In this document: positions 2,006 through 11,398 of the stretch, in pieces | Numbering within the stretch: the stretch's first letter is position 1 | Layout of the letters: each line of letters begins with the position of its first letter | NCBI GenBank assembly: GCA_007375995.1 | Contig: VMFK01000001.1 | Coordinates: 1-43,043, forward strand | Reading direction: 5' to 3' | DNA length: 43,043 nt | DNA from: Parcubacteria group bacterium Gr01-1014_56 | GTDB lineage: Bacteria; Patescibacteriota; Minisyncoccia; Phycocordibacterales; SBAW01 | Notes under the pieces: generated by a model | What the model saw: the letters and a program-made list of their open reading frames with translations, nothing else | Told to the model about the DNA's origin: nothing | Database searches by the model: none | Made by a program: the position numbers and the translations under genes

Positions 2006-2016
2006 AAATAGACTTG

Positions 2017-2088
2017 TGACCCTACCGGGAATCGAACCCGGATTAACGGCTTGAAAAGCCGGCGTCCTAACCGTTAGACGATAGGGCC
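2017..2088 (-). tRNA. tRNA-Glu (anticodon UUC)
   Basis: Hand-folded cloverleaf: acceptor GGCCCTA/TAGGGTC, T arm CCGGG-TTCGATT-CCCGG, anticodon loop TTTTCAA. No encoded CCA. Confidence 0.85.
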
Positions 2089-2135
2089 TCATGCTCGCGC
2101 GTGCGAGCGTGTTGGTAGCTCACTACGCGACTACA

Positions 2136-2176
2136 CTTGGATTTTCAACAGCATAGGAATGCTAAGAAAATCTCGG
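2136..2176 (-). repeat. Conserved structured 3' trailer of tRNA-Ser (copy 1)
   Basis: On the minus strand, GAGATTTTC-TT-AGCAT-TCCT-ATGCT-GTT-GAAAATC-CAAG lies directly 3' of tRNA-Ser(CGA). The same 41 nt, with a compensatory stem change, follows tRNA-Ser(GGA) at 23127-23167. Confidence 0.7.
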
Positions 2177-2263
2177 CGGAGAGGGTGAGATTCGAACTCA
2201 CGGTAAGGTTTCCCCTACGCCGCATTTCGAGTGCGGTGCCTTCGACCACTCAGCCACCTCTCC
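2177..2263 (-). tRNA. tRNA-Ser (anticodon CGA)
   Basis: 87 nt with a long variable arm. Acceptor GGAGAGG/CCTCTCC, anticodon loop CTCGAAA, T loop TTCGAAT. Confidence 0.85.
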
Positions 2264-2380
2264 TTGTTGCGATCATGGGCACCGCAAGAGAACAAAAACA
2301 AAATACCATTTTTATGGCGATTAGGCAAAAAGCTTCCTTGCCTCGAAACGAGAGAGTCTCTATACTGGTTCTACTTCTGT

Positions 2381-3070
2381 ATGCAAGCAGTTATCCTAGC
2401 CGCAGGCGAAGGCACGCGCATGCGCCCGCTTACGCTTACGCGCCCTAAACCCCTTGTTGAGGTTCTAGGCAAACCTATCATTGAGCATGTGGTGCGTGCT
2501 CTCCCTGACGAAATTGACGAGATCATTATCGTTGTTAAATACCTACAGGAGCAGATCCGTGCCTACTGCGGCGAGACTTTTTGTGGCAAACGTGTGACCT
2601 ATGTTGAACAAGGGCCACAGAGGGGCACTGCAGGAGCACTTAGCTACGCTCGTCCGTTTATAAACGGCCGCTTTCTTATCACGTTTGCTGACGACCTTTT
2701 AGCAAAAAAAGATATTGAGGAGCTACTCAAATACGAGTACTCGACCTTAGTAACCAGGCACGACCACCCGGAGAATTTCGGTGTCGTCTCGCTTAACCCG
2801 GACGGTACGCTCTACACTATCATCGAGAAGCCTGAGCACCCTAAGACAAACCTTATAAGCACTGGTGTAAGTGTGCTCTCCCCAAAAATTTTCGACTACC
2901 AACCAGAAGAAAGAAAAGGCGAGTTTTTTATGACCGGTATGATCACCGGTTTGGCAAAAGACTTTCCTGTCGTAGTTGTCGAAGCAAGCTTTTGGCAACC
3001 AGTTGGCACGCCCGAGGACATACCTAAAGCAGAAACCGCCCTCCTTGAGCGCTTGAGTGACGATAAATAA
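2381..3070 (+). CDS. Sugar-phosphate nucleotidyltransferase (NTP_transferase family)
   Basis: MQAVILAAGEGTRMRPLTLTRPKPLV signature (GxGTRxxPxT). The start is set at the ATG at 2381, because the longer ORF overlaps tRNA-Ser. Confidence 0.75.
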   Translation: MQAVILAAGEGTRMRPLTLTRPKPLVEVLGKPIIEHVVRALPDEIDEIIIVVKYLQEQIRAYCGETFCGKRVTYVEQGPQRGTAGALSYARPFINGRFLITFADDLLAKKDIEELLKYEYSTLVTRHDHPENFGVVSLNPDGTLYTIIEKPEHPKTNLISTGVSVLSPKIFDYQPEERKGEFFMTGMITGLAKDFPVVVVEASFWQPVGTPEDIPKAETALLERLSDDK

Positions 3071-3076
3071 ATCCTG

Positions 3077-3149
3077 TGCGCGATAGAGGACTCGAACCTC
3101 TGACCCTCCCCACGTCAAGGGGATGCTCTACCAACTGAGCTAACCGCGC
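3077..3149 (-). tRNA. tRNA-Val (anticodon GAC)
   Basis: Acceptor GCGCGGT/ATCGCGC, D arm AGCTCAGTTGGTAGAGC, anticodon loop TTGACGT, T arm AGAGG-TTCGAGT-CCTCT. Confidence 0.85.
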
Positions 3150-3197
3150 GTGTTCAAAACAATAGCAAAAACAACGATTCTGCGCTATACCAACAGT

Positions 3198-4238
3198 ATG
3201 AAAGTGCTTGCGATAGAAACCTCCTGCGACGAGACAGGAATAGCGATTGTTGAGGGAGAAAAGATTTCTGACGGTTTTTCTTTTACTGTGCATAAAAACG
3301 TCTTGCTCTCCCAAGCGGCTCTCCACGCAGAGTTTGGGGGTGTATACCCCAATCTCGCTAAGCGCGAACATCAAAAAAACCTCCCTGTTTTATATGAGCA
3401 GTTTAAAGATGAGGTGGTGGATGCGATCGCAGTTACTCAAGGCCCTGGGCTTGAGCCTGCGCTGTGGACCGGTATCGAATTTGCAAAAAAAGTTGCAGCC
3501 GAGCGCGGCGTGCCGCTCCTCCCTACTAATCATATGGAAGGGCATTTAATTTCTTCTCTAGTACAAAATGGAAAACTCGAGAAAGTTGAGTTGCCTGTGC
3601 TTGCACTCCTTGTCTCCGGCGGACACACAGAGTTTGTTTTAATGGAGAGCTGGTTTAAGTATGAAGTTATCGGCGAGACGCTTGACGACGCTGTGGGCGA
3701 AGCGTTCGATAAAGTTGCGCGTATGCTTGGCTTGGCTTACCCTGGGGGCCCCGAGATTTCCAAATACGCCTCCCAAGCCCGTGAGCAAGGTTTAACCTTG
3801 CTCAAAACACTACCGCGGCCAATGCTCAGGTCGGACAATTGTGATGTCTCGTTCTCTGGCCTCAAAACCGCGGCACTCTACGCACTGCGCGGAAAAGAAT
3901 TATCTGAAGATGAGAAAAAAGCCTTCGCACGTGAGTTTGAGGACGCGGTCACAGAAGTATTTTTAGTAAAAACAAAACGTGCGCTTGAGGAGACAGACGC
4001 AAAAACGTTTGTCATCGGCGGAGGAGTTGCCGCAAATACTTATTTGAGAGAAAAACTGAAGGCGGTCGTTAAATCTGCGTTTGCTGAAGTAGACTTTCTC
4101 CTCCCTGAACGTTCGATAACTGGCGACAATGCGATCATGATCGCTGAAGCCGCACTCGCTCGCCGTCTCTCCGGACTTGACGACTCCGACCAGGGAGATT
4201 TCCGCGCTGTTGGAAATCTCTCAATAGAAAAAGATTGA
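3198..4238 (+). CDS. tsaD: tRNA N6-adenosine threonylcarbamoyltransferase TsaD
   Basis: MKVLAIETSCDETGIAIV, HMEGH and LVSGGHT motifs. The ATG at 3198 is chosen because the GTG at 3150 abuts tRNA-Val (3077-3149). TGA stop at 4236-4238. Confidence 0.9.
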   Translation: MKVLAIETSCDETGIAIVEGEKISDGFSFTVHKNVLLSQAALHAEFGGVYPNLAKREHQKNLPVLYEQFKDEVVDAIAVTQGPGLEPALWTGIEFAKKVAAERGVPLLPTNHMEGHLISSLVQNGKLEKVELPVLALLVSGGHTEFVLMESWFKYEVIGETLDDAVGEAFDKVARMLGLAYPGGPEISKYASQAREQGLTLLKTLPRPMLRSDNCDVSFSGLKTAALYALRGKELSEDEKKAFAREFEDAVTEVFLVKTKRALEETDAKTFVIGGGVAANTYLREKLKAVVKSAFAEVDFLLPERSITGDNAIMIAEAALARRLSGLDDSDQGDFRAVGNLSIEKD

Positions 4239-4465
4239 GCCGCCCGGGTTAGGGACGGCTCTGGTGAGACAACGTCAACGTCGCTTTTGATAGCATCATT
4301 TTTCTCGTCTCACTAATTAAGTGCGGGGCATTGTTCTCTTCGACCAAAATGATCAAGTTTAGCTTTGCCCCGCCCGTGCTTTCGCACGGTATTAATTGGT
4401 GGTGACATCTTTCGAATCGTCTTTATAGACAAATCACCCAACGTCACCACCCTGCCTTGCGGCAG
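4237..4465 (-). ncRNA. Structured RNA unit, distal 3' copy (hairpin 4237-4261; modules 4264-4313, 4323-4373, 4398-4451; GNRA hairpins 4374-4389 and 4452-4465)
   Basis: It has the same stems, in the same order, as the unit at 6172-6399. The tetraloops read GAAA/GCAA only on the minus strand. The terminal hairpin GAGCCG...CGGCTC is followed on the minus strand by AATCTTTTTC. Confidence 0.5.
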
Positions 4466-4480
4466 AATGCAAAGAACTTT

Positions 4481-4737
4481 CGGCGGACACCTCATTTGAA
4501 GTCTCAGACAAGACACTAAAATGGTCGTCCGCCGTCCGCATGCCGAAGCTTACGGAATAGGGTGAGGGGTCAAAGGACCGAGCGTATTTCTAAGAGCGAA
4601 ACACAACCTCCATCACGACCCCTCTTTTCAACATCCGATGTTCAGATACTGGAAAGAGAGGCGAAGTGTGCTTGCACACTTCGCCGATGAGACATACTAT
4701 TTTTTGCTCAACAGAGCAGATAATCGTTCGTCTCATC
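4481..4737 (-). ncRNA. Additional RNA modules directly 3' of the recombinase ORF (module 4686-4737, GC hairpin 4660-4685, stem 4564-4624, module 4481-4534)
   Basis: Modules 4686-4737 and 4481-4534 have the 12-hairpin-12 layout. Their stems co-vary with the copies at 6199-6249 and 6330-6383. Confidence 0.4.
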
Positions 4738-4739
4738 CA

Positions 4740-6050
4740 TCACGCTGCTTTTTGACGAACTTCCACCTGCCGCATTGAGGGATACTCAGGGTCGAGCACG
4801 AACTTTTCAGGATCCCCTTCATACCTTGTCCACTCGCGGTAGAGCCACATCACAAACTGCGAGAGCGTGCGCCAGATGGCCATCTTGTGGATATGGCCAT
4901 TGGTGTACTTTTTCACGCCCTTCTCGTCTGCAACCGGTTCTGGATGCACACGTCTGAAGTATGCCTTGTTCGCAAGGAGCTTTTGGCCCCAGTACGAACC
5001 TGGTCGCCTGTTGAACTGGTCGCCAAGCAGATACAGCGCTTGCCGTACATCTGGGTTCCAGTTTGAAAGTTGACCGCTTCTCCTCCTTGGGAACTTCCCA
5101 TTAAGAAGAATGTGCACGCCAGCAAAGGCCTTGAACTTCGTCTTGTCAGAAAACCGCCTGATATCGACAACGCCCGAGACGACGCGCGAGGCAATTGCCC
5201 AGCCCATGCCTTCGATGTCACCGATGACGCTTTGCCATACACCTGTCGCTTTGACGAGCTTTTCGAGCTCACGCTCGCGCCTTGCTTCTTCGGCCAACAT
5301 TGCCAGTAAAATAGCGTCGTTTGCTTTTGCTTCATCGTATTGCTTCTCCAAGTCTCCTTCAGGGAAATACCCGTCAGGACGGCAGAAGATTGATCCAATG
5401 AAACGTTGGCGTAGACGCTGTTCACAAGCAATACGTGCCTTCATCACATCAATGCGAGCACCAAATGCTACCCGCACAGCGATGATCTCGCGGTCGCGCG
5501 GACGCACTTCGTAAAAATGCGTAGGCGTTGCAAGAAATGTGCGTGCAAGAAGCTCGGCATCGTTGTCTTTCGTTACCTCATTACGAAGCATTTTGAGCTT
5601 CGCGGCTGGCATACGATACACAGTAGCTCCGATTTCTTCGCCGCGACGCGCAAGCGCCAAGGCAGAGTAATCGCCGGAACCGCCGAGCACCATAGCAACA
5701 CAGTCGTCTTTTTTGAGGCCATCAAAACGATCCGCAACCTTCTCAATACGATATAGGTCGCGACCAATCATTCTGGTTTGTACGCCCTCGGGCACAACTT
5801 CGTTCTTCTTCACTTTGCGAAGCTTCAGATAGTGGTCTGGGATACTTGATGCAACATCTTCGCCTGCTTGAAGCGGGCGGAAATGCGTCGGGAATGTGCC
5901 AAGCAAGAAATCATATTCTGCTTGTTCGTCCTCAAGCATATAACTCCCGAGAACTGCTCCCATCTCGCTCAACATGACGACTTGCGTCGGGCGAGCTTCG
6001 CCCTCGGCAGTCTGTTTAACGCGGTGGCGAATGCCAATAATGCGTGTCAT
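4740..6050 (-). CDS. Divergent IS110/IS1111-family (Piv-type) recombinase-like protein
   Basis: The C-terminal half resembles the IS110 Tnp domain (GDIEGMGWAIASRVVSGVVDIRRFSDKTKFKAFAGV, RRRSGQLSNWNPDVRQALYLLG). The middle resembles the RuvC-like part (VAMVLGGSGDYSALALA, TKDNDAELLA). AAGGAG lies 7 nt before the ATG at 6050. TGA stop. Confidence 0.6.
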   Translation of the reverse strand: MTRIIGIRHRVKQTAEGEARPTQVVMLSEMGAVLGSYMLEDEQAEYDFLLGTFPTHFRPLQAGEDVASSIPDHYLKLRKVKKNEVVPEGVQTRMIGRDLYRIEKVADRFDGLKKDDCVAMVLGGSGDYSALALARRGEEIGATVYRMPAAKLKMLRNEVTKDNDAELLARTFLATPTHFYEVRPRDREIIAVRVAFGARIDVMKARIACEQRLRQRFIGSIFCRPDGYFPEGDLEKQYDEAKANDAILLAMLAEEARRERELEKLVKATGVWQSVIGDIEGMGWAIASRVVSGVVDIRRFSDKTKFKAFAGVHILLNGKFPRRRSGQLSNWNPDVRQALYLLGDQFNRRPGSYWGQKLLANKAYFRRVHPEPVADEKGVKKYTNGHIHKMAIWRTLSQFVMWLYREWTRYEGDPEKFVLDPEYPSMRQVEVRQKAA

Positions 6051-6171
6051 GCACGTACTCCTTTTTCTCTGGTTTCTAGTTCGTCTGCAAAGCAGACATG
6101 TCAAAGATCTAAAAAGATCAGCGGAGGCAACCCTCCTCTCGGGCGCCGGATAACCAGCACACGGGAGGAAG

Positions 6172-6399
6172 GGCGAAGCGTATTTCTACGCTTCGCCTGA
6201 TGAAACATGTCTTGATTCGCTCAATGCGCATGACAAACTTTGTTTCACCAATAAATGCGGGGCATTTTTCCTCTCGCTCAAAAAGCAAAGACGTGGTCGC
6301 CCCGCCCGTGCTTTCGCAGGGAATTAACTGGTGGTGACAACCTCATTATCGTTCTTACGAACAAAAGGTGTTTCGTCACCACCACTGCCTTGCGACAGA
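6172..6399 (-). ncRNA. Structured RNA unit 5' of the recombinase ORF (GNRA hairpins 6386-6399 and 6306-6321; modules 6330-6383, 6257-6305, 6199-6249; GC hairpin 6172-6197)
   Basis: Three 12-hairpin-12 modules plus GNRA-capped hairpins, co-oriented with the ORF. Two plus-strand mismatches become G-U pairs on the minus strand. Confidence 0.5.
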
Positions 6400-6503
6400 A
6401 TTTGAATAAGCTTTCTCCTTACTTTGTACTATATAAAGATATATATGTCAATACAACCACTCGCCTGCTGTTAAAGGAAGCTTAATTTGTTAGGATAAAC
6501 TCC

Positions 6504-9182
6504 ATGCCAGAGAAGTTTAAGAAGCCCTATGACCACACAGCTGTGGAGGCTGCGGTGTATAAAAAATGGGAGGAGTCGGGCTACTTTAACCCCGATAACC
6601 TACCCGGCGAGCGCAAAGAGGTCTACTCGATCATAATGCCGCCTCCCAATGCCAACGGCTCGCTCCACGTGGGCCATGCCCTCTTTGTGACGCTCCAAGA
6701 CCTGTTTATCCGCTACAAGCGTATGTCTGGATTTAAGACCTTGTGGCTCCCCGGAGCAGACCATGCCGGTTTTGAAACACAGTTAGTGTATGAAAAAAAA
6801 TTAGAGAAAGAGGGCCGCTCACGCTTTAAGATGGACCGCGATGAGTTTTATAAAGAGACACTTGCCTTCACACAAACAAACAAAGTATTTATGGAGAGCC
6901 AACTCCGGCAGCTAGGCGCCTCCTGCGATTGGTCACGCGAGAAATTTACACTTGACCCGGACATTATAAAAACAGTTTATGGAACATTTGAGCAGCTTTA
7001 CAAAGACGGCCTCGCCTACCGCGGTGTGAGGCCTGTTAATTGGAGTACAAAATACCAAACCTCGCTGTCTGATTTAGAAACTAAAACAATTGAGCGAAAA
7101 GATCCGTTGTACTACCTTAAATACGGGCCGTTTGTGTTGGCAACCGTACGCCCTGAGACAAAATTTGGCGACACTGCTGTTGCGGTTAACCCAAATGACA
7201 AACGCTATCAAGAGTGGGTCGGCAAAGAAATTGAATTTGATGGTCTTATCGGCCCAGTCAAACTTAGAGTTATTGCAGACGAGTATGTCGACATGGAGTT
7301 TGGCACTGGCGTTGTCAAAATCACTCCCGCGCACGACCCGAACGACTTTGAGGTTGCACAGCGCCATGGCCTCCCCGCAGTCGAGGTGATCGACAAATAC
7401 GGCAGACTGACAGAAAAGTGCGGTAAGTATGCTGGCATGAAGGTGATGGAAGCGCGCGCGGCTGTTGCAAAAGACCTTGCGGAAAAAGGATTGCTAGAAA
7501 AAGTGGACGAAAACTATACCCACACGATTTTAGTTAACTACAAAAACGAAAACGATATTTTAGAGCCTCGAATCATGCCGCAGTGGTTTATTAAGATGCA
7601 ACCGTTGGCAGAAAAAGCTCGCGAGGCAGTCGAGCAAGGAAAGATAAAATTTGTCACCGACTACCACCAGAAAATATTCTTTCATTGGCTCGATAACTTG
7701 CGCGACTGGAACATCTCACGCCAAATCATTTGGGGCATCCCTATCCCCGCGTGGTATTGCCTCAAGTGCAAAAAACCACAAATAAATTTCAAAATAAAAT
7801 CTAAATGGTTTCTGATAAGGCACGGGTTAACTGAACTAAACGTAAAAGAACTCCTCCAAGGAATGAGCGACTCTAAGCTCACCCCTGAAGGCATTGCCCA
7901 GGCAAAAGCCGCGGGAGAGCGTCTAAAAAATCAGGGTATCGCTATGATAATTAGCTCAGACCTTGGCCGATGTAAGGAAACATCTGAAATAATTGCTGAG
8001 GCAATAGGCGCATCGATTGTATATGATGAGATTTTGCGAGAAAGAGATTTTCGCTCTCTTGAGAAAACATCGTACAAGGATTTTATGGAGAAACAGACGG
8101 TGCCTGGAGTACGCAATTATGACATTCGCCTGGCGGATGAGGAAACGTACCAAGAGGTGGAGGAGCGAGTATGGGGCGCTTTTACAAAACACCAAGCAGA
8201 GCATGGGGGGAAAAATATACTGATAGTAAGTCATGGTGCGGTAACTCGCGCGCTATTAAAAAAGATCAAAGACCTCACTCCGGGTGACGCAATGAGTACG
8301 CCTGCGGTAGAAAATGGCGAAATTTTTGCCCTTGAGGTATCCGAGGACCCCTGTTCTCAATGTGGTGGAGACCTTTTTGAGCACGACAGCGACACCTTTG
8401 ACACATGGTTTTCCTCCGGCCAGTGGCCGTTTGCGACGCTTGGCTACCCAGACTCGTCGGATTTCAAAACCTACTACCCAACGAACGTGATGGAGACCGG
8501 GTATGACATTCTTTTCTTTTGGGTGATGCGGATGATCATGCTTGGGCTCTATCGCACTGGCGAGGTGCCGTTTCGCGATGTGTATTTGCACGGACTTATC
8601 CGCGATGCGAACAAGCAGAAGATGAGTAAGAGCAAGGGCAACGTTATCAACCCGCTTGATGTTGCGAGTGTGTACGGGACTGACGCTTTGCGTATGGCGC
8701 TCTTGGTCGGTAACACTCCAGGGGCTGATATGTCGCTCGCAGAGGATAAAATTAAAGCGTATAAACTATTCTCAAACAAACTCTGGAACATCGCGCGGTT
8801 CGTGCTTGATGGTACAGACGGTACGGTGCCAGGAGCGTTAAACGAAGCTGATCAAAAGCTGCGCGACGAGTGCGACGCGCTTATTGTGGACGTGACTGAG
8901 GACCTCAATAAATATCGCGTGTATATGGCGGCTGAAAAGCTCTACCATTATATCTGGGACCGCTTAGCCGCTGAGATTCTTGAAGAAAGTAAACCTCTGC
9001 TCAAAGGTTCTGACGCGGCGGCAAAGTCATCACGCCAAACACTCCTTCTCTCTCTCCTATCAGACTCACTTAAACTTCTGCATCCGTTTATGCCCTTTGT
9101 GACTGAGGAGATCTGGGGCTCAATGCCAGGAACTCGGGACCTGTTGATGGTTGAAGCATGGCCATCCAAAGCCAGCGAATAA
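6504..9182 (+). CDS. valS: Valine--tRNA ligase with a nested histidine-phosphatase domain
   Basis: HIGH-type PNANGSLHVGHAL, editing-domain TRPET..GDTAV and GTGVVKITPAHDPND, DTWFSSGQWPF, KMSKS. An insert with RHG/SHG motifs lies between CLKC and CSQC. Confidence 0.9.
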   Translation: MPEKFKKPYDHTAVEAAVYKKWEESGYFNPDNLPGERKEVYSIIMPPPNANGSLHVGHALFVTLQDLFIRYKRMSGFKTLWLPGADHAGFETQLVYEKKLEKEGRSRFKMDRDEFYKETLAFTQTNKVFMESQLRQLGASCDWSREKFTLDPDIIKTVYGTFEQLYKDGLAYRGVRPVNWSTKYQTSLSDLETKTIERKDPLYYLKYGPFVLATVRPETKFGDTAVAVNPNDKRYQEWVGKEIEFDGLIGPVKLRVIADEYVDMEFGTGVVKITPAHDPNDFEVAQRHGLPAVEVIDKYGRLTEKCGKYAGMKVMEARAAVAKDLAEKGLLEKVDENYTHTILVNYKNENDILEPRIMPQWFIKMQPLAEKAREAVEQGKIKFVTDYHQKIFFHWLDNLRDWNISRQIIWGIPIPAWYCLKCKKPQINFKIKSKWFLIRHGLTELNVKELLQGMSDSKLTPEGIAQAKAAGERLKNQGIAMIISSDLGRCKETSEIIAEAIGASIVYDEILRERDFRSLEKTSYKDFMEKQTVPGVRNYDIRLADEETYQEVEERVWGAFTKHQAEHGGKNILIVSHGAVTRALLKKIKDLTPGDAMSTPAVENGEIFALEVSEDPCSQCGGDLFEHDSDTFDTWFSSGQWPFATLGYPDSSDFKTYYPTNVMETGYDILFFWVMRMIMLGLYRTGEVPFRDVYLHGLIRDANKQKMSKSKGNVINPLDVASVYGTDALRMALLVGNTPGADMSLAEDKIKAYKLFSNKLWNIARFVLDGTDGTVPGALNEADQKLRDECDALIVDVTEDLNKYRVYMAAEKLYHYIWDRLAAEILEESKPLLKGSDAAAKSSRQTLLLSLLSDSLKLLHPFMPFVTEEIWGSMPGTRDLLMVEAWPSKASE

Positions 9183-10476: not shown

Positions 10477-10552
10477 GTTATGGCGTGTGCACTGTCTCGA
10501 AGACTCCCAGTACACACTAAAAATGTACTCGCAAAGCCTCCTTATTTTTAGG

Positions 10553-10625
10553 TGCTTGGGGCCGGGATCGAACCGGCGACCCCCTCCTCTTCAGGGAGAT
10601 GCTCTACCAACTGAGCTACCCAAGC
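10553..10625 (-). tRNA. tRNA-Phe (anticodon GAA)
   Basis: GCTTGGGTAGCTCAGTTGGTAGAGC..., anticodon loop CTGAAGA, T arm GCCGG-TTCGATC-CCGGC. Confidence 0.85.
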
Positions 10626-10668
10626 AATACAAGGGATTCTAGCAAATATCGTGAGATTTAGAAACTCC

Positions 10669-10926
10669 TTATTGGGGCAGGAACCCTTGTGCTTTTTGTT
10701 GAAGTTCTTGGATGTTGTTATACATAGCTAATACCTGATTTATATACGGTTGAAAGTAGAGATAACTGTACACTGACGCCCCGACAAGAACCGCGATCCA
10801 AAGTAGCCGCATAAAGCGAGATACCCATGCGCTACGACGCATGCCGTGAAGTATTTTATTGTTCTCTTCTGAAAGCGCGACACTTCGACGCACCAGCTCT
10901 TTGAGCTCTTCTATTTGTTGATCCAC
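10669..10926 (-). CDS. Hypothetical small membrane protein
   Basis: 85-aa ORF with an N-terminal coiled segment and one TM helix (LLWIAVLVGASVYSYLYF). No recognisable family. Confidence 0.45.
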   Translation of the reverse strand: MDQQIEELKELVRRSVALSEENNKILHGMRRSAWVSRFMRLLWIAVLVGASVYSYLYFQPYINQVLAMYNNIQELQQKAQGFLPQ

Positions 10927-10941
10927 ACTTTGATTTTATCA

Positions 10942-11013
10942 TGCCCTCGCCAAGAGTCGAACTTGGATTCTCGCGTTAGGAGTGCGAAGTTCTGTCCGTT
11001 GAACTACGAGGGC
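10942..11013 (-). tRNA. tRNA-Arg (anticodon CCU)
   Basis: GCCCTCGTAGTTCAACGGACAGAAC..., anticodon loop CTCCTAA, T arm CCAAG-TTCGACT-CTTGG. There is an A31-C39 mismatch. Confidence 0.8.
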
Positions 11014-11038
11014 TACCGATACCCAACACCAAAAAAAA

Positions 11039-11281
11039 TTACGCTTCTAGCCCCAGTTTTTGTGCTAGACGCTCGCGCGAGAAACCAACCATCGCGTCTC
11101 CGCCGATCACAATAACCGGCACACCTAATTGTCCAGTGAGCTGGATCATCTCTGCGCGTTTTGTCGCGTCACTTGCAACATCATAGTTAGTGTACTCCAC
11201 TCCTTTTTCAGTAAAAAATTCTTTTGCCATTTGGCAAAAGTGACAGGTCGGAGTCGAGTAAATAGTGACGTGTTTATCCAT
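11039..11281 (-). CDS. Glutaredoxin-like (NrdH/Grx family) small redox protein
   Basis: 80 aa. TIYSTPTCHFCQMAKEFF has the CxxC active site, and the Grx-type GVPVIVIGG motif is present. Confidence 0.8.
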   Translation of the reverse strand: MDKHVTIYSTPTCHFCQMAKEFFTEKGVEYTNYDVASDATKRAEMIQLTGQLGVPVIVIGGDAMVGFSRERLAQKLGLEA

Positions 11282-11327
11282 AAGTTTATTTGTTATAACT
11301 TTTCTTTCAGTATAACATACGTGTCAA

Positions 11328-11398
11328 GCGGGATTAGTTCAGTGGCAGAACGAGTGCTTCCCAAGCATTAGGCGCGAGTCCGATTCTCGCATCCCGCA
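11328..11398 (+). tRNA. tRNA-Gly (anticodon CCC)
   Basis: GCGGGATTAGTTCAGTGGCAGAAC..., anticodon loop TTCCCAA, T arm GCGAG-TCCGATT-CTCGC. Confidence 0.85.

Follow-up and report, generated by a model that had tools for sequence, protein, structure and literature searches.

Aminoacyl-tRNA synthetases are among the most conserved of enzymes, and the extra domains that some of them carry usually have no enzymatic function and are found mostly at the termini and mostly in eukaryotes. The CP1 editing domain of the valyl-, isoleucyl- and leucyl-tRNA synthetases (ValRS, IleRS and LeuRS) is a catalytic domain that is nested in the class Ia Rossmann fold and has its own active site. The subject of this analysis is valS of Parcubacteria group bacterium Gr01-1014_56, a tiny groundwater bacterium represented by a metagenome-assembled genome, the product of which bears a branch-1 histidine phosphatase between the two halves of the ValRS zinc knuckle. 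The gene lies in a stretch of 43,043 nucleotides (nt), referred to here as the window. CP1, an ancient and near-universal domain, acts on the product of its own enzyme, whereas the phosphatase cassette is confined to certain lineages, can be dispensed with and is exchangeable.

The ValRS of Thermus thermophilus (1GAX/1IVS) is the closest structural counterpart of the host enzyme, with which it shares the domain order, the HIGH and KMSKS signatures, and the CP1 editing and anticodon-binding domains (sequence E 5e-167). The two differ in that 17 residues separate the Cys pairs of the knuckle in Thermus and 194, forming a whole enzyme domain, in the window protein, and in that the latter lacks ~150 residues found at the C terminus of the Thermus enzyme, the tRNA-binding arm among them. 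The insert in turn shares its fold with PhoE/YhfR of Geobacillus stearothermophilus (1H2E, 1EBB), PspA (4IJ5), GpgP (4PZA) and HFP (9MMH) at TMt 0.78-0.82, and has the size (~180-200 residues) and the RHG...R...E...H set of the short PhoE/YhfR-type phosphatases. Identity to these is 23-28%, and the insert alone is tied by a zinc ribbon and embedded in a synthetase.

Two curated families offer looser parallels. The bifunctional RNase H/acid phosphatases of the Rv2228c type (NF005567) also join a branch-1 phosphatase to a nucleic-acid enzyme, but the fusion with RNase H is end to end and not a nested insertion in a synthetase, and the phosphatase part of the window protein, at 88-92 bits against a cut-off of 326, is not a member. 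The N-acetyltransferase domain-containing IleRS of NCBIfam NF040702 is a precedent for a class Ia synthetase with an extra enzymatic domain, where model coordinates alone suggest ~175 extra residues at some point in the span of model positions ~287-702, ahead of the DxWFxSG region. There the host is an IleRS with a GNAT as its extra domain, and the window protein reaches 171 bits against a cut-off of 1999. A published precedent for this GNAT-IleRS was considered and dropped, the candidate paper (PMC6331615) using 'inserted' for cloning steps alone. Full-text searches of the literature found no histidine phosphatase in ValRS or IleRS, which agrees with an earlier reading of this DNA, made from the letters alone and here called the original prediction, in which the combination was not known to have been described. 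The cassette thus appears undescribed, and public sequences that carry it are annotated as synthetases only.

The phosphatase domain and its insertion site

The valS gene (6504..9182, on the + strand, as are all features of the gene given below) is a single uninterrupted open reading frame (ORF) of 892 codons plus stop, and its product is identical to the deposited protein TSC69655.1, which is named only 'valyl-tRNA synthetase'. Pfam PF00300 (His_Phos_1) matches residues 436-615 (7809..8348) with E 8.5e-43 and 146.7 bits against a cut-off of 21.7, covers model positions 2-184 of 194, and stands between the two halves of a split PF00133 (tRNA-synt_1). The 194-residue insert on its own gives E 6.1e-44. 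The presence of an embedded His_Phos_1 domain in this ValRS is far beyond chance. It is bounded by the two zinc-knuckle halves CLKC (7758..7769, residues 419-422) and CSQC (8352..8363, residues 617-620), which align with C417/C420 and C438/C441 of 1GAX, respectively. A phmmer search against the PDB pairs query residues 7-424 with 1GAX residues 5-422 and query residues 614-889 with 1GAX residues 433-708, and it follows from this alignment that the 194 residues between the Cys pairs replace the 17 of Thermus; the domain stands in frame between the knuckle halves, as had been proposed. The positions originally given, including those for CLKC and CSQC and for the start of the RHG motif (WFLIRHG, from nt 7806), are all correct.

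Within the insert, R439 and H440 of the RHG motif (7818..7823) would supply a phosphate-binding Arg and the predicted phospho-acceptor. The second phosphate-binding Arg would be R489 (7968..7970), in GRCKET (residues 488-493); the predicted general acid is E513 (8040..8042), in the LRER motif of LRERDF (residues 511-516); and the second catalytic His would be H577 (8232..8234), in the SHG motif of SHGAV (residues 576-580). The insert belongs to the branch-1 histidine phosphatases by its profile score, by this RHG/Arg/Glu/His set and by a dPGM/PhoE-type alpha/beta fold, so that the claim of a complete enzyme of this branch is borne out by both the Pfam match and the structural model.

In the nomenclature of IleRS, the insertion site is the CP3 subdomain, between the RDWxxSRxxxWG CP2-3 linker and the second Rossmann half. 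The topology and zinc motif of CP3 vary among IleRS structures (PMC7191050). An AlphaFold2 (AF2) model of the module (residues 408-640; pLDDT 93.4, pTM 0.90) predicts with high confidence that the cassette folds as its own domain at the knuckle. Both this model and that of the full-length protein present the insert as a folded phosphatase in an unbroken chain with its host. In each, the CxxC pairs sit in the turns of beta-hairpins (strands 416-419/425-427 and 607-613/624-627), and this modelled pattern is that of a zinc ribbon joining the N and C termini of the phosphatase. Such a clamp on both termini may be what makes the unit portable. The top Foldseek matches of the module are PhoE/YhfR 1H2E and 1EBB (TMt 0.82, prob 1.00), followed by the riboflavin-pathway HFP 9MMH, PspA 4IJ5, GpgP Rv2419c (4PZA) and mycobacterial hydrolases, with the short phosphatases outranking the longer dPGM mutases. 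The CP3 of the window ValRS is therefore a self-contained cassette of ~211 residues, comprised of a four-Cys zinc ribbon with a PhoE/YhfR-like phosphatase at its tip.

A more specific name is not supplied by the profiles, as no NCBIfam equivalog for a particular phosphatase or mutase reaches its cut-off with the window protein or the insert. The alpha-ribazole phosphatase CobC (TIGR03162) is the top-scoring named family, at 101-106 bits against 162.9; the models of cofactor-dependent phosphoglycerate mutase (dPGM; NF010713 and related models), among them TIGR01258 (46.9 vs 81.7), NF038349 (76 vs 225) and NF002339 (77 vs 316), and the phosphohistidine phosphatase SixA (TIGR00249; 27.1 vs 74.5) also stay below. 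Two other identities were rejected. A self-splicing insertion or intein does not fit, as Pfam shows His_Phos_1 alone in the insert and no Hint domain, and a component of a defence system was set aside on zero matches of the cassette to the anti-phage models of PADLOC-DB (E <= 0.01).

The host synthetase

The whole window protein exceeds the cut-offs of two ValRS equivalogs, NF004349 (837.5 bits vs 704) and TIGR00422 (805.1 vs 612.1), and its full-length AF2 model (residues 1-892; pLDDT 93.5, pTM 0.89), built on an alignment drawn from database proteins, has 1GAX_A as its best PDB fold (TMq 0.74, TMt 0.76). These results and the alignment to 1GAX confirm that both flanks of the phosphatase are good ValRS sequence. 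Motif searches locate the HIGH signature of the class I catalytic site as HVGH (6666..6677, residues 55-58), in which an alignment of 57 fusions shows conservation of 90% or more for H55, G57 and H58, and KMSKS (8619..8633, residues 706-710), in which the same is true of K706, S708, K709 and S710. The CP1 editing motif TPAHDPND (7323..7346, residues 274-281; motif search) has T274, P275, H277 and D281 invariant in that alignment, and the editing region matches the ValRS editing-domain structures 1WKA/1WK9 and Pfam PF13603. The anticodon-binding domain (PF08264, E 1.4e-23) occupies residues 783-890 (8850..9173). With all of these elements present, the synthetase part looks functional.

Directly 5' of the cassette is the CP2-CP3 linker LRDWNISRQIIWG (7698..7736, residues 399-411), the counterpart of 453ARDWNVSRNRYWG465 in yeast IleRS, where it forms part of the lining of the reveromycin A pocket, reported to occupy the tRNA binding site (PMC7955072). 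On the other side, the second half of the Rossmann fold begins with DTWFSS (8400..8417, residues 633-638), all six residues of which are invariant among the fusions. W635, 15 residues past the second CxxC, aligns with W456 of 1GAX, which we take to be part of the valine pocket.

The chain stops after the anticodon-binding domain, with no PF10458 match in the window ValRS for a C-terminal coiled-coil tRNA-binding arm, and 1GAX, of 862 residues, is aligned with it only up to residue 708. As an arm-less C terminus is common to many ValRS and fusions of Patescibacteria, the missing PF10458 is a lineage trait and no ground to deny ValRS membership. PF10458 is present in the fusion proteins P0204 and P0176, and the bodies encoded at loci L015 and L020 reach an alignment of ~1000 residues, well past the C terminus of the window protein.

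Recurrence, catalytic residues and selection

The fusion is not a one-off. A query spanning the junctions retrieved 13 protein clusters with both PF00133 and PF00300, at 40-53% identity, and a scan in which each GTDB species was represented by one genome found at least 56 loci (L005-L060) that match the entire junction-spanning module. In all 56, the N-terminal half of ValRS, the phosphatase and DTWF stand in one unbroken frame. Further fusions occur among many metagenome proteins and contigs from different studies. Among the matches listed, the credibly labelled hosts are all Patescibacteria (Kaiser-, Morani-, Lipton- and Colwellbacteria, Paceibacterota, Parcubacteria, Minisyncoccia); other names, which were not trusted, come from a few assemblies with automatic labels.

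In the alignment of 57 fusions, R439, H440, R489, H577 and N571 are present in every sequence and E513 in 54, while of the knuckle residues C419, C422 and C620 are kept in all and C617 in 54. The retention of the catalytic set suggests that the phosphatase is apparently active. A Liptonbacteria-type subgroup (L049, L054 and L056, and the protein P0098) reads LRGR and HI, and L046 has RHA for RHG; judged by these substitutions, the phosphatases in question may be inactive or altered. Nei-Gojobori (NG86) dN/dS estimates for six vertically inherited pairs are 0.03-0.07 for the insert and 0.05-0.10 for the body, values that are rough because dS is near saturation. A vertically inherited cassette is under purifying selection as strong as that on the ValRS body.

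These data bear on the proposal that the domain is a non-catalytic scaffold at CP3 serving in tRNA binding, oligomerisation or regulation, for instance in compensation for the missing C-terminal arm. The window ValRS and many fusions do indeed lack the arm, the catalytic Glu is lost in 3 of the 57 sequences, and CP3 varies freely among class Ia enzymes. Yet the nucleophilic His, both Arg residues and the second His are kept in all 57, even across replacements of one cassette by another of ~45% identity, and a pattern of compensation is not seen, since arm-bearing fusions (for example P0204, P0176 and L015/L020) also carry the cassette. A scaffold of this kind is, on balance, very unlikely.

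Presence and absence at the CP3 site

The closest ValRS bodies to that of the window (P0010, P0016 and P0017), mostly ~85-95% identical across 20-residue windows, lack the phosphatase and the knuckle alike and have in their place a Cys-free loop of 20 residues, 'IPAWFKDKEIKIQENSPGEGWVQDQDTFDTWFSS'. The contig of P0010 (L083) is syntenic with the window over TsaD, ValRS, PrsW and HSP20, and blastn homology between the two extends over 6558-7755 and 8391-8808 at a DNA identity of ~78%. At the DNA level the cassette is thus 7756..8390, 635 nt encoding residues ~419-629, and it replaces 62 nt of the L083 valS, where the loop is KDKEIKIQENSPGEGWVQDQ, with zero Cys. Given the Cys-free loop of the closest relatives, knuckle and phosphatase have been gained or lost as one unit in this lineage. 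The original prediction of a domain nested in the knuckle therefore stands as to location, but the knuckle is not a resident feature of the host onto which the domain was added. The insert-less valS of L083 (6001-8111 of that locus) is called as three consecutive genes of 517, 99 and 121 residues, and the split call implies frameshifts that are either sequencing errors or signs of a decaying gene.

Such a difference between near relatives raises the question of an assembly artefact in this contig, in which a genome with a knuckle-less ValRS would have been joined to that of a cassette-bearing relative from the same sample. In its favour are the closest bodies without cassette, the source in a metagenome-assembled genome, and the GC content at third codon positions, which is 0.427 ± 0.034 in the cassette, unlike the body (0.550 in its N-terminal and 0.589 in its C-terminal part). 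A chimera would, however, need two precise in-frame crossovers in flanks that share only the ~78% identity noted above with the nearest insert-less relative; the same architecture emerges from independent assemblies of at least 56 genomes and of many metagenome contigs in different studies; and no donor is visible, no database sequence being closer than 53% to the cassette among the matches listed. An artefact is accordingly an extremely improbable source of the fusion.

The CP3 loop is variable well beyond this pair. A census of related Patescibacteria ValRS that show both flanks gave a short CxxC...CxxC knuckle in 19, a knuckle with phosphatase in 5 and a Cys-free loop in 5, with a few more carrying other expansions of 60-80 residues. 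L051 has ~110 extra residues following the first CxxC, and more unrelated expansions at or near CP3 are found in P0253 (residues ~445-585), P0222 (residues ~225-345), P0066, P0074 and P0096. An RNA-binding ASCH/PUA domain next to the phosphatase was considered for P0253, P0222 and L051, and Pfam assigns no family to the CP3 expansions other than a borderline ASCH match in the P0253 segment (20.5 bits vs 21.2); ASCH gives E 0.029 in P0222 and no match in L051. From these sequences, CP3 is variable and insertion-tolerant and seems to be a hot spot for insertions in the ValRS of Patescibacteria.

Exchange of cassettes between synthetase bodies

In this family, insert and body have separate histories. 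Pairwise identities of inserts and bodies are weakly correlated (Pearson 0.30), and body and insert point to the same nearest sequence in only 8 of 57. The inserts of L008, L012, L013 and L053 are 84-89% identical to one another, and L011 is 93-94% identical to these four in the N-terminal body but merely 52-57% in the insert. The proteins of L015 and L020 are 99% identical in the N-terminal and 94% in the C-terminal body and 53% identical in the insert; their DNA is 98.5% identical upstream and 90% downstream of ~500 nt without a blastn match. The reverse is seen in L027 and L028, where bodies of 46% identity carry inserts of 74% identity. In discordant pairs, the breakpoints of sliding-window comparisons coincide with the two CxxC motifs.

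Rapid evolution of the insert was considered as the source of this discordance and rejected on the low dN/dS of the vertically inherited pairs. In the discordant pair L015/L020, dS of the body is 0.12, whereas dS of the insert is saturated and its dN is 0.40. The low vertical dN/dS, together with this combination, identifies the discordance as replacement by distantly diverged alleles. The cassette is a portable unit that includes both CxxC pairs and is swapped via recombination at the conserved ValRS flanks. Diversification by a diversity-generating retroelement was also rejected, the divergence spanning the whole domain and not adenine-targeted patches. Near the ends of the window cassette is a 15-nt inverted repeat, 93% complementary, at 7760-7774 and 8323-8337. 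Terminal inverted repeats as a feature of the family were rejected, the other 56 loci being at the level of chance (8.6 nt observed, 8.6 nt shuffled), and the repeat is specific to the window.

Free-standing, tandem and IleRS-borne copies

The phosphatase with its knuckle is also encoded on its own. Stand-alone proteins of 210-235 residues with both CxxC pairs are P0036, P0043, P0130, P0134, P0191 and P0236, with no ValRS near their genes, and some of them keep ValRS-like flanking residues (YFCMSCG..., ...CGGDLYE). The annotated start of P0043 removes its first Cys, and an upstream ATG restores the CxxC (MPKYFCMSCG). Such free-standing knuckle-plus-phosphatase genes with no synthetase nearby are found in L002 (6001-6639, true start ~5983), L003 and L004 (574-1218). 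The copy in L002 is followed, ~1.6 kb downstream, by two genes for bAvd, which diversity-generating retroelements use as an accessory protein.

Searched with a profile, 1.84 billion representative proteins gave 657 matches at E <= 1e-30, and among the best 150 of these, all 16 long proteins (>600 residues) that were scanned are ValRS or IleRS. Several ValRS hold 2-4 tandem phosphatase copies in CP3, namely P0121, with four, P0158, P0176 and P0204; in P0176 (1538 residues), ~300 unassigned residues separate the two copies. Two copies in tandem occupy the CP3-equivalent site of the IleRS proteins P0135, P0139, P0141, P0142 and P0144, whereas in the IleRS proteins P0137, P0146 and P0250 the copies are split, the second lying between the KMSKS region and the anticodon-binding domain, a second insertion site for the phosphatase. 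One IleRS fusion originates from Candidatus Peribacteria.

The inserts of single-copy ValRS form a coherent group, with a mean insert identity of 0.43, to which the free knuckle-bearing proteins are closest (0.38), followed by free single-domain phosphatases (0.36) and the inserts of IleRS and multi-copy proteins (0.31-0.32). As the latter are no closer to the single-copy group than are free phosphatases, the comparison suggests that the phosphatase was captured by synthetases more than once.

Possible functions

The best reading of the cassette, one that we hold with evenly balanced confidence, is that of a phosphomonoesterase that acts autonomously and is attached to class Ia synthetases. 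In its reaction the phosphate would be bound by R439, R489 and H577 and transferred to H440, with E513 as the acid. The attachment would be a tether only, without a co-evolved interface to the synthetase, and selection would act on proximity to something that class Ia synthetases bind or release. That divergent cassettes work on the same body, that copy number varies and that free forms exist makes the phosphatase probably autonomous, and its proximity to class Ia synthetases has probably been selected, since the multidomain partners identified are ValRS and IleRS only, in several architectures. The phosphomonoesters available at class Ia synthetases are nucleotide monophosphates and tRNA ends. 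The preferred candidate substrate is a phosphorylated, pyrophosphorylated or 3'-phosphate acceptor end of tRNA, which would be restored to a chargeable state; the second candidate is a nucleotide monophosphate, for instance AMP set free during aminoacylation.

Several points weigh against this reading. No result of the analysis points to any substrate, and the closest relatives in sequence and structure are metabolic small-molecule phosphatases, none of which, to our knowledge, is known to act on RNA ends. The presence or absence of the cassette among close relatives makes it dispensable for ValRS function, and catalysis is not retained universally, as L049, L054 and L056 have Gly for the catalytic Glu (LRGR) and HI for HG. 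The profile used in the search of 1.84 billion proteins contained short ValRS flanks, which favoured synthetase matches, and the discordant histories of body and insert come from metagenome-assembled contigs, in which strain-level chimeras are possible.

The same metabolic relatives inform the principal alternative, in which a broad-specificity or pathway phosphatase (PhoE-, PspA-, CobC- or GpmB-like) would be hitch-hiking in a tolerant surface loop of a gene that is essential and highly expressed, the fusion affording co-expression and stable inheritance in a streamlined genome and having no relation to aminoacylation or tRNA. The best sequence models are CobC, GpmB, PspA and archaeal dPGM and the best folds PhoE/YhfR, HFP, PspA and GpgP; stand-alone and tandem free forms occur; divergent cassettes are interchangeable on one body, which argues against a specific interface; copy number ranges from 1 to 4; and CP3 is insertion-tolerant, also holding unrelated expansions of 60-110 residues. 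Tolerance alone, however, hardly explains why the partners identified in the clade are only class Ia synthetases, in at least three architectures and at two sites, and one would not expect the valS of the closest relatives to lack a core metabolic enzyme, unless their genomes hold a free copy. A passenger without bearing on translation is on these grounds somewhat unlikely.

A more specific version of a role at tRNA ends can be framed from toxSAS toxins, which pyrophosphorylate the CCA end of tRNA and thereby block charging (10.1101/2021.04.30.441581, PMC11559606). The cassette could serve as a mobile and exchangeable counter-measure and repair components of translation beside the synthetase, by removing the 3'-(pyro)phosphate set by toxSAS-type toxins on tRNA CCA ends or, alternatively, by removing the 3'-phosphate left by acceptor-end nucleases or reversing phosphorylation of the synthetase itself; the frequent replacement of alleles would then reflect an arms race. 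The position of CP3 by the linker of the tRNA pocket, the partnership with class Ia enzymes only and the accessory, swappable behaviour of the cassette lend this proposal indirect support, but no result links the phosphatase domain to the toxSAS process, and the PADLOC models do not match. The counter-measure is thus a speculative and improbable proposal.

Genomic surroundings of valS

Upstream of valS in the window are tsaD (3150-4238) and, between the two genes, an ORF of 454 residues on the opposite strand (4740-6104, -), with non-coding flanks of 4239-4739 and 6105-6503. The ORF weakly resembles the IS110 family (DEDD_Tnp_IS110, 21.5 bits vs a cut-off of 29; Transposase_20, 21.6 vs 21.3) and has no match among the PADLOC-DB models (E <= 0.01). 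It is absent at the syntenic position of L083, where tsaD ends 10 nt before valS, so that the locus differs from L083 by two insertions, the IS110-like ORF and the cassette. A scan of 4200-6600 for promoters and terminators returned nothing useful. Rfam at its gathering threshold gave seven tRNAs in the window and no other RNA family, with none in the region of the 454-residue ORF. The tRNAs include a cluster upstream of valS (2016-3149; Glu, Ser, Val-GAC) and another downstream (10551-11398; Phe, Arg, Gly); L083 contains a stretch of 100% identity to tRNA-Phe and, elsewhere, one of 93% identity to tRNA-Val.

Conclusions

Extra domains in synthetases are a known theme, and the exchange of cassettes is the part of this finding that could least have been expected. 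In dozens of Patescibacteria species, the sequences point to a bacterial class Ia synthetase whose catalytic core houses a second enzyme that is apparently active. Should the phosphatase indeed act on tRNA ends or on products of the synthetase, it would add quality control or repair at a new level to translation. Were it only a passenger, CP3 would be a natural permissive site for the grafting of whole enzymes, useful to protein engineering, and essential genes of the candidate phyla radiation would exchange internal cassettes by recombination, a process relevant to phylogenies that are based on aminoacyl-tRNA synthetases.

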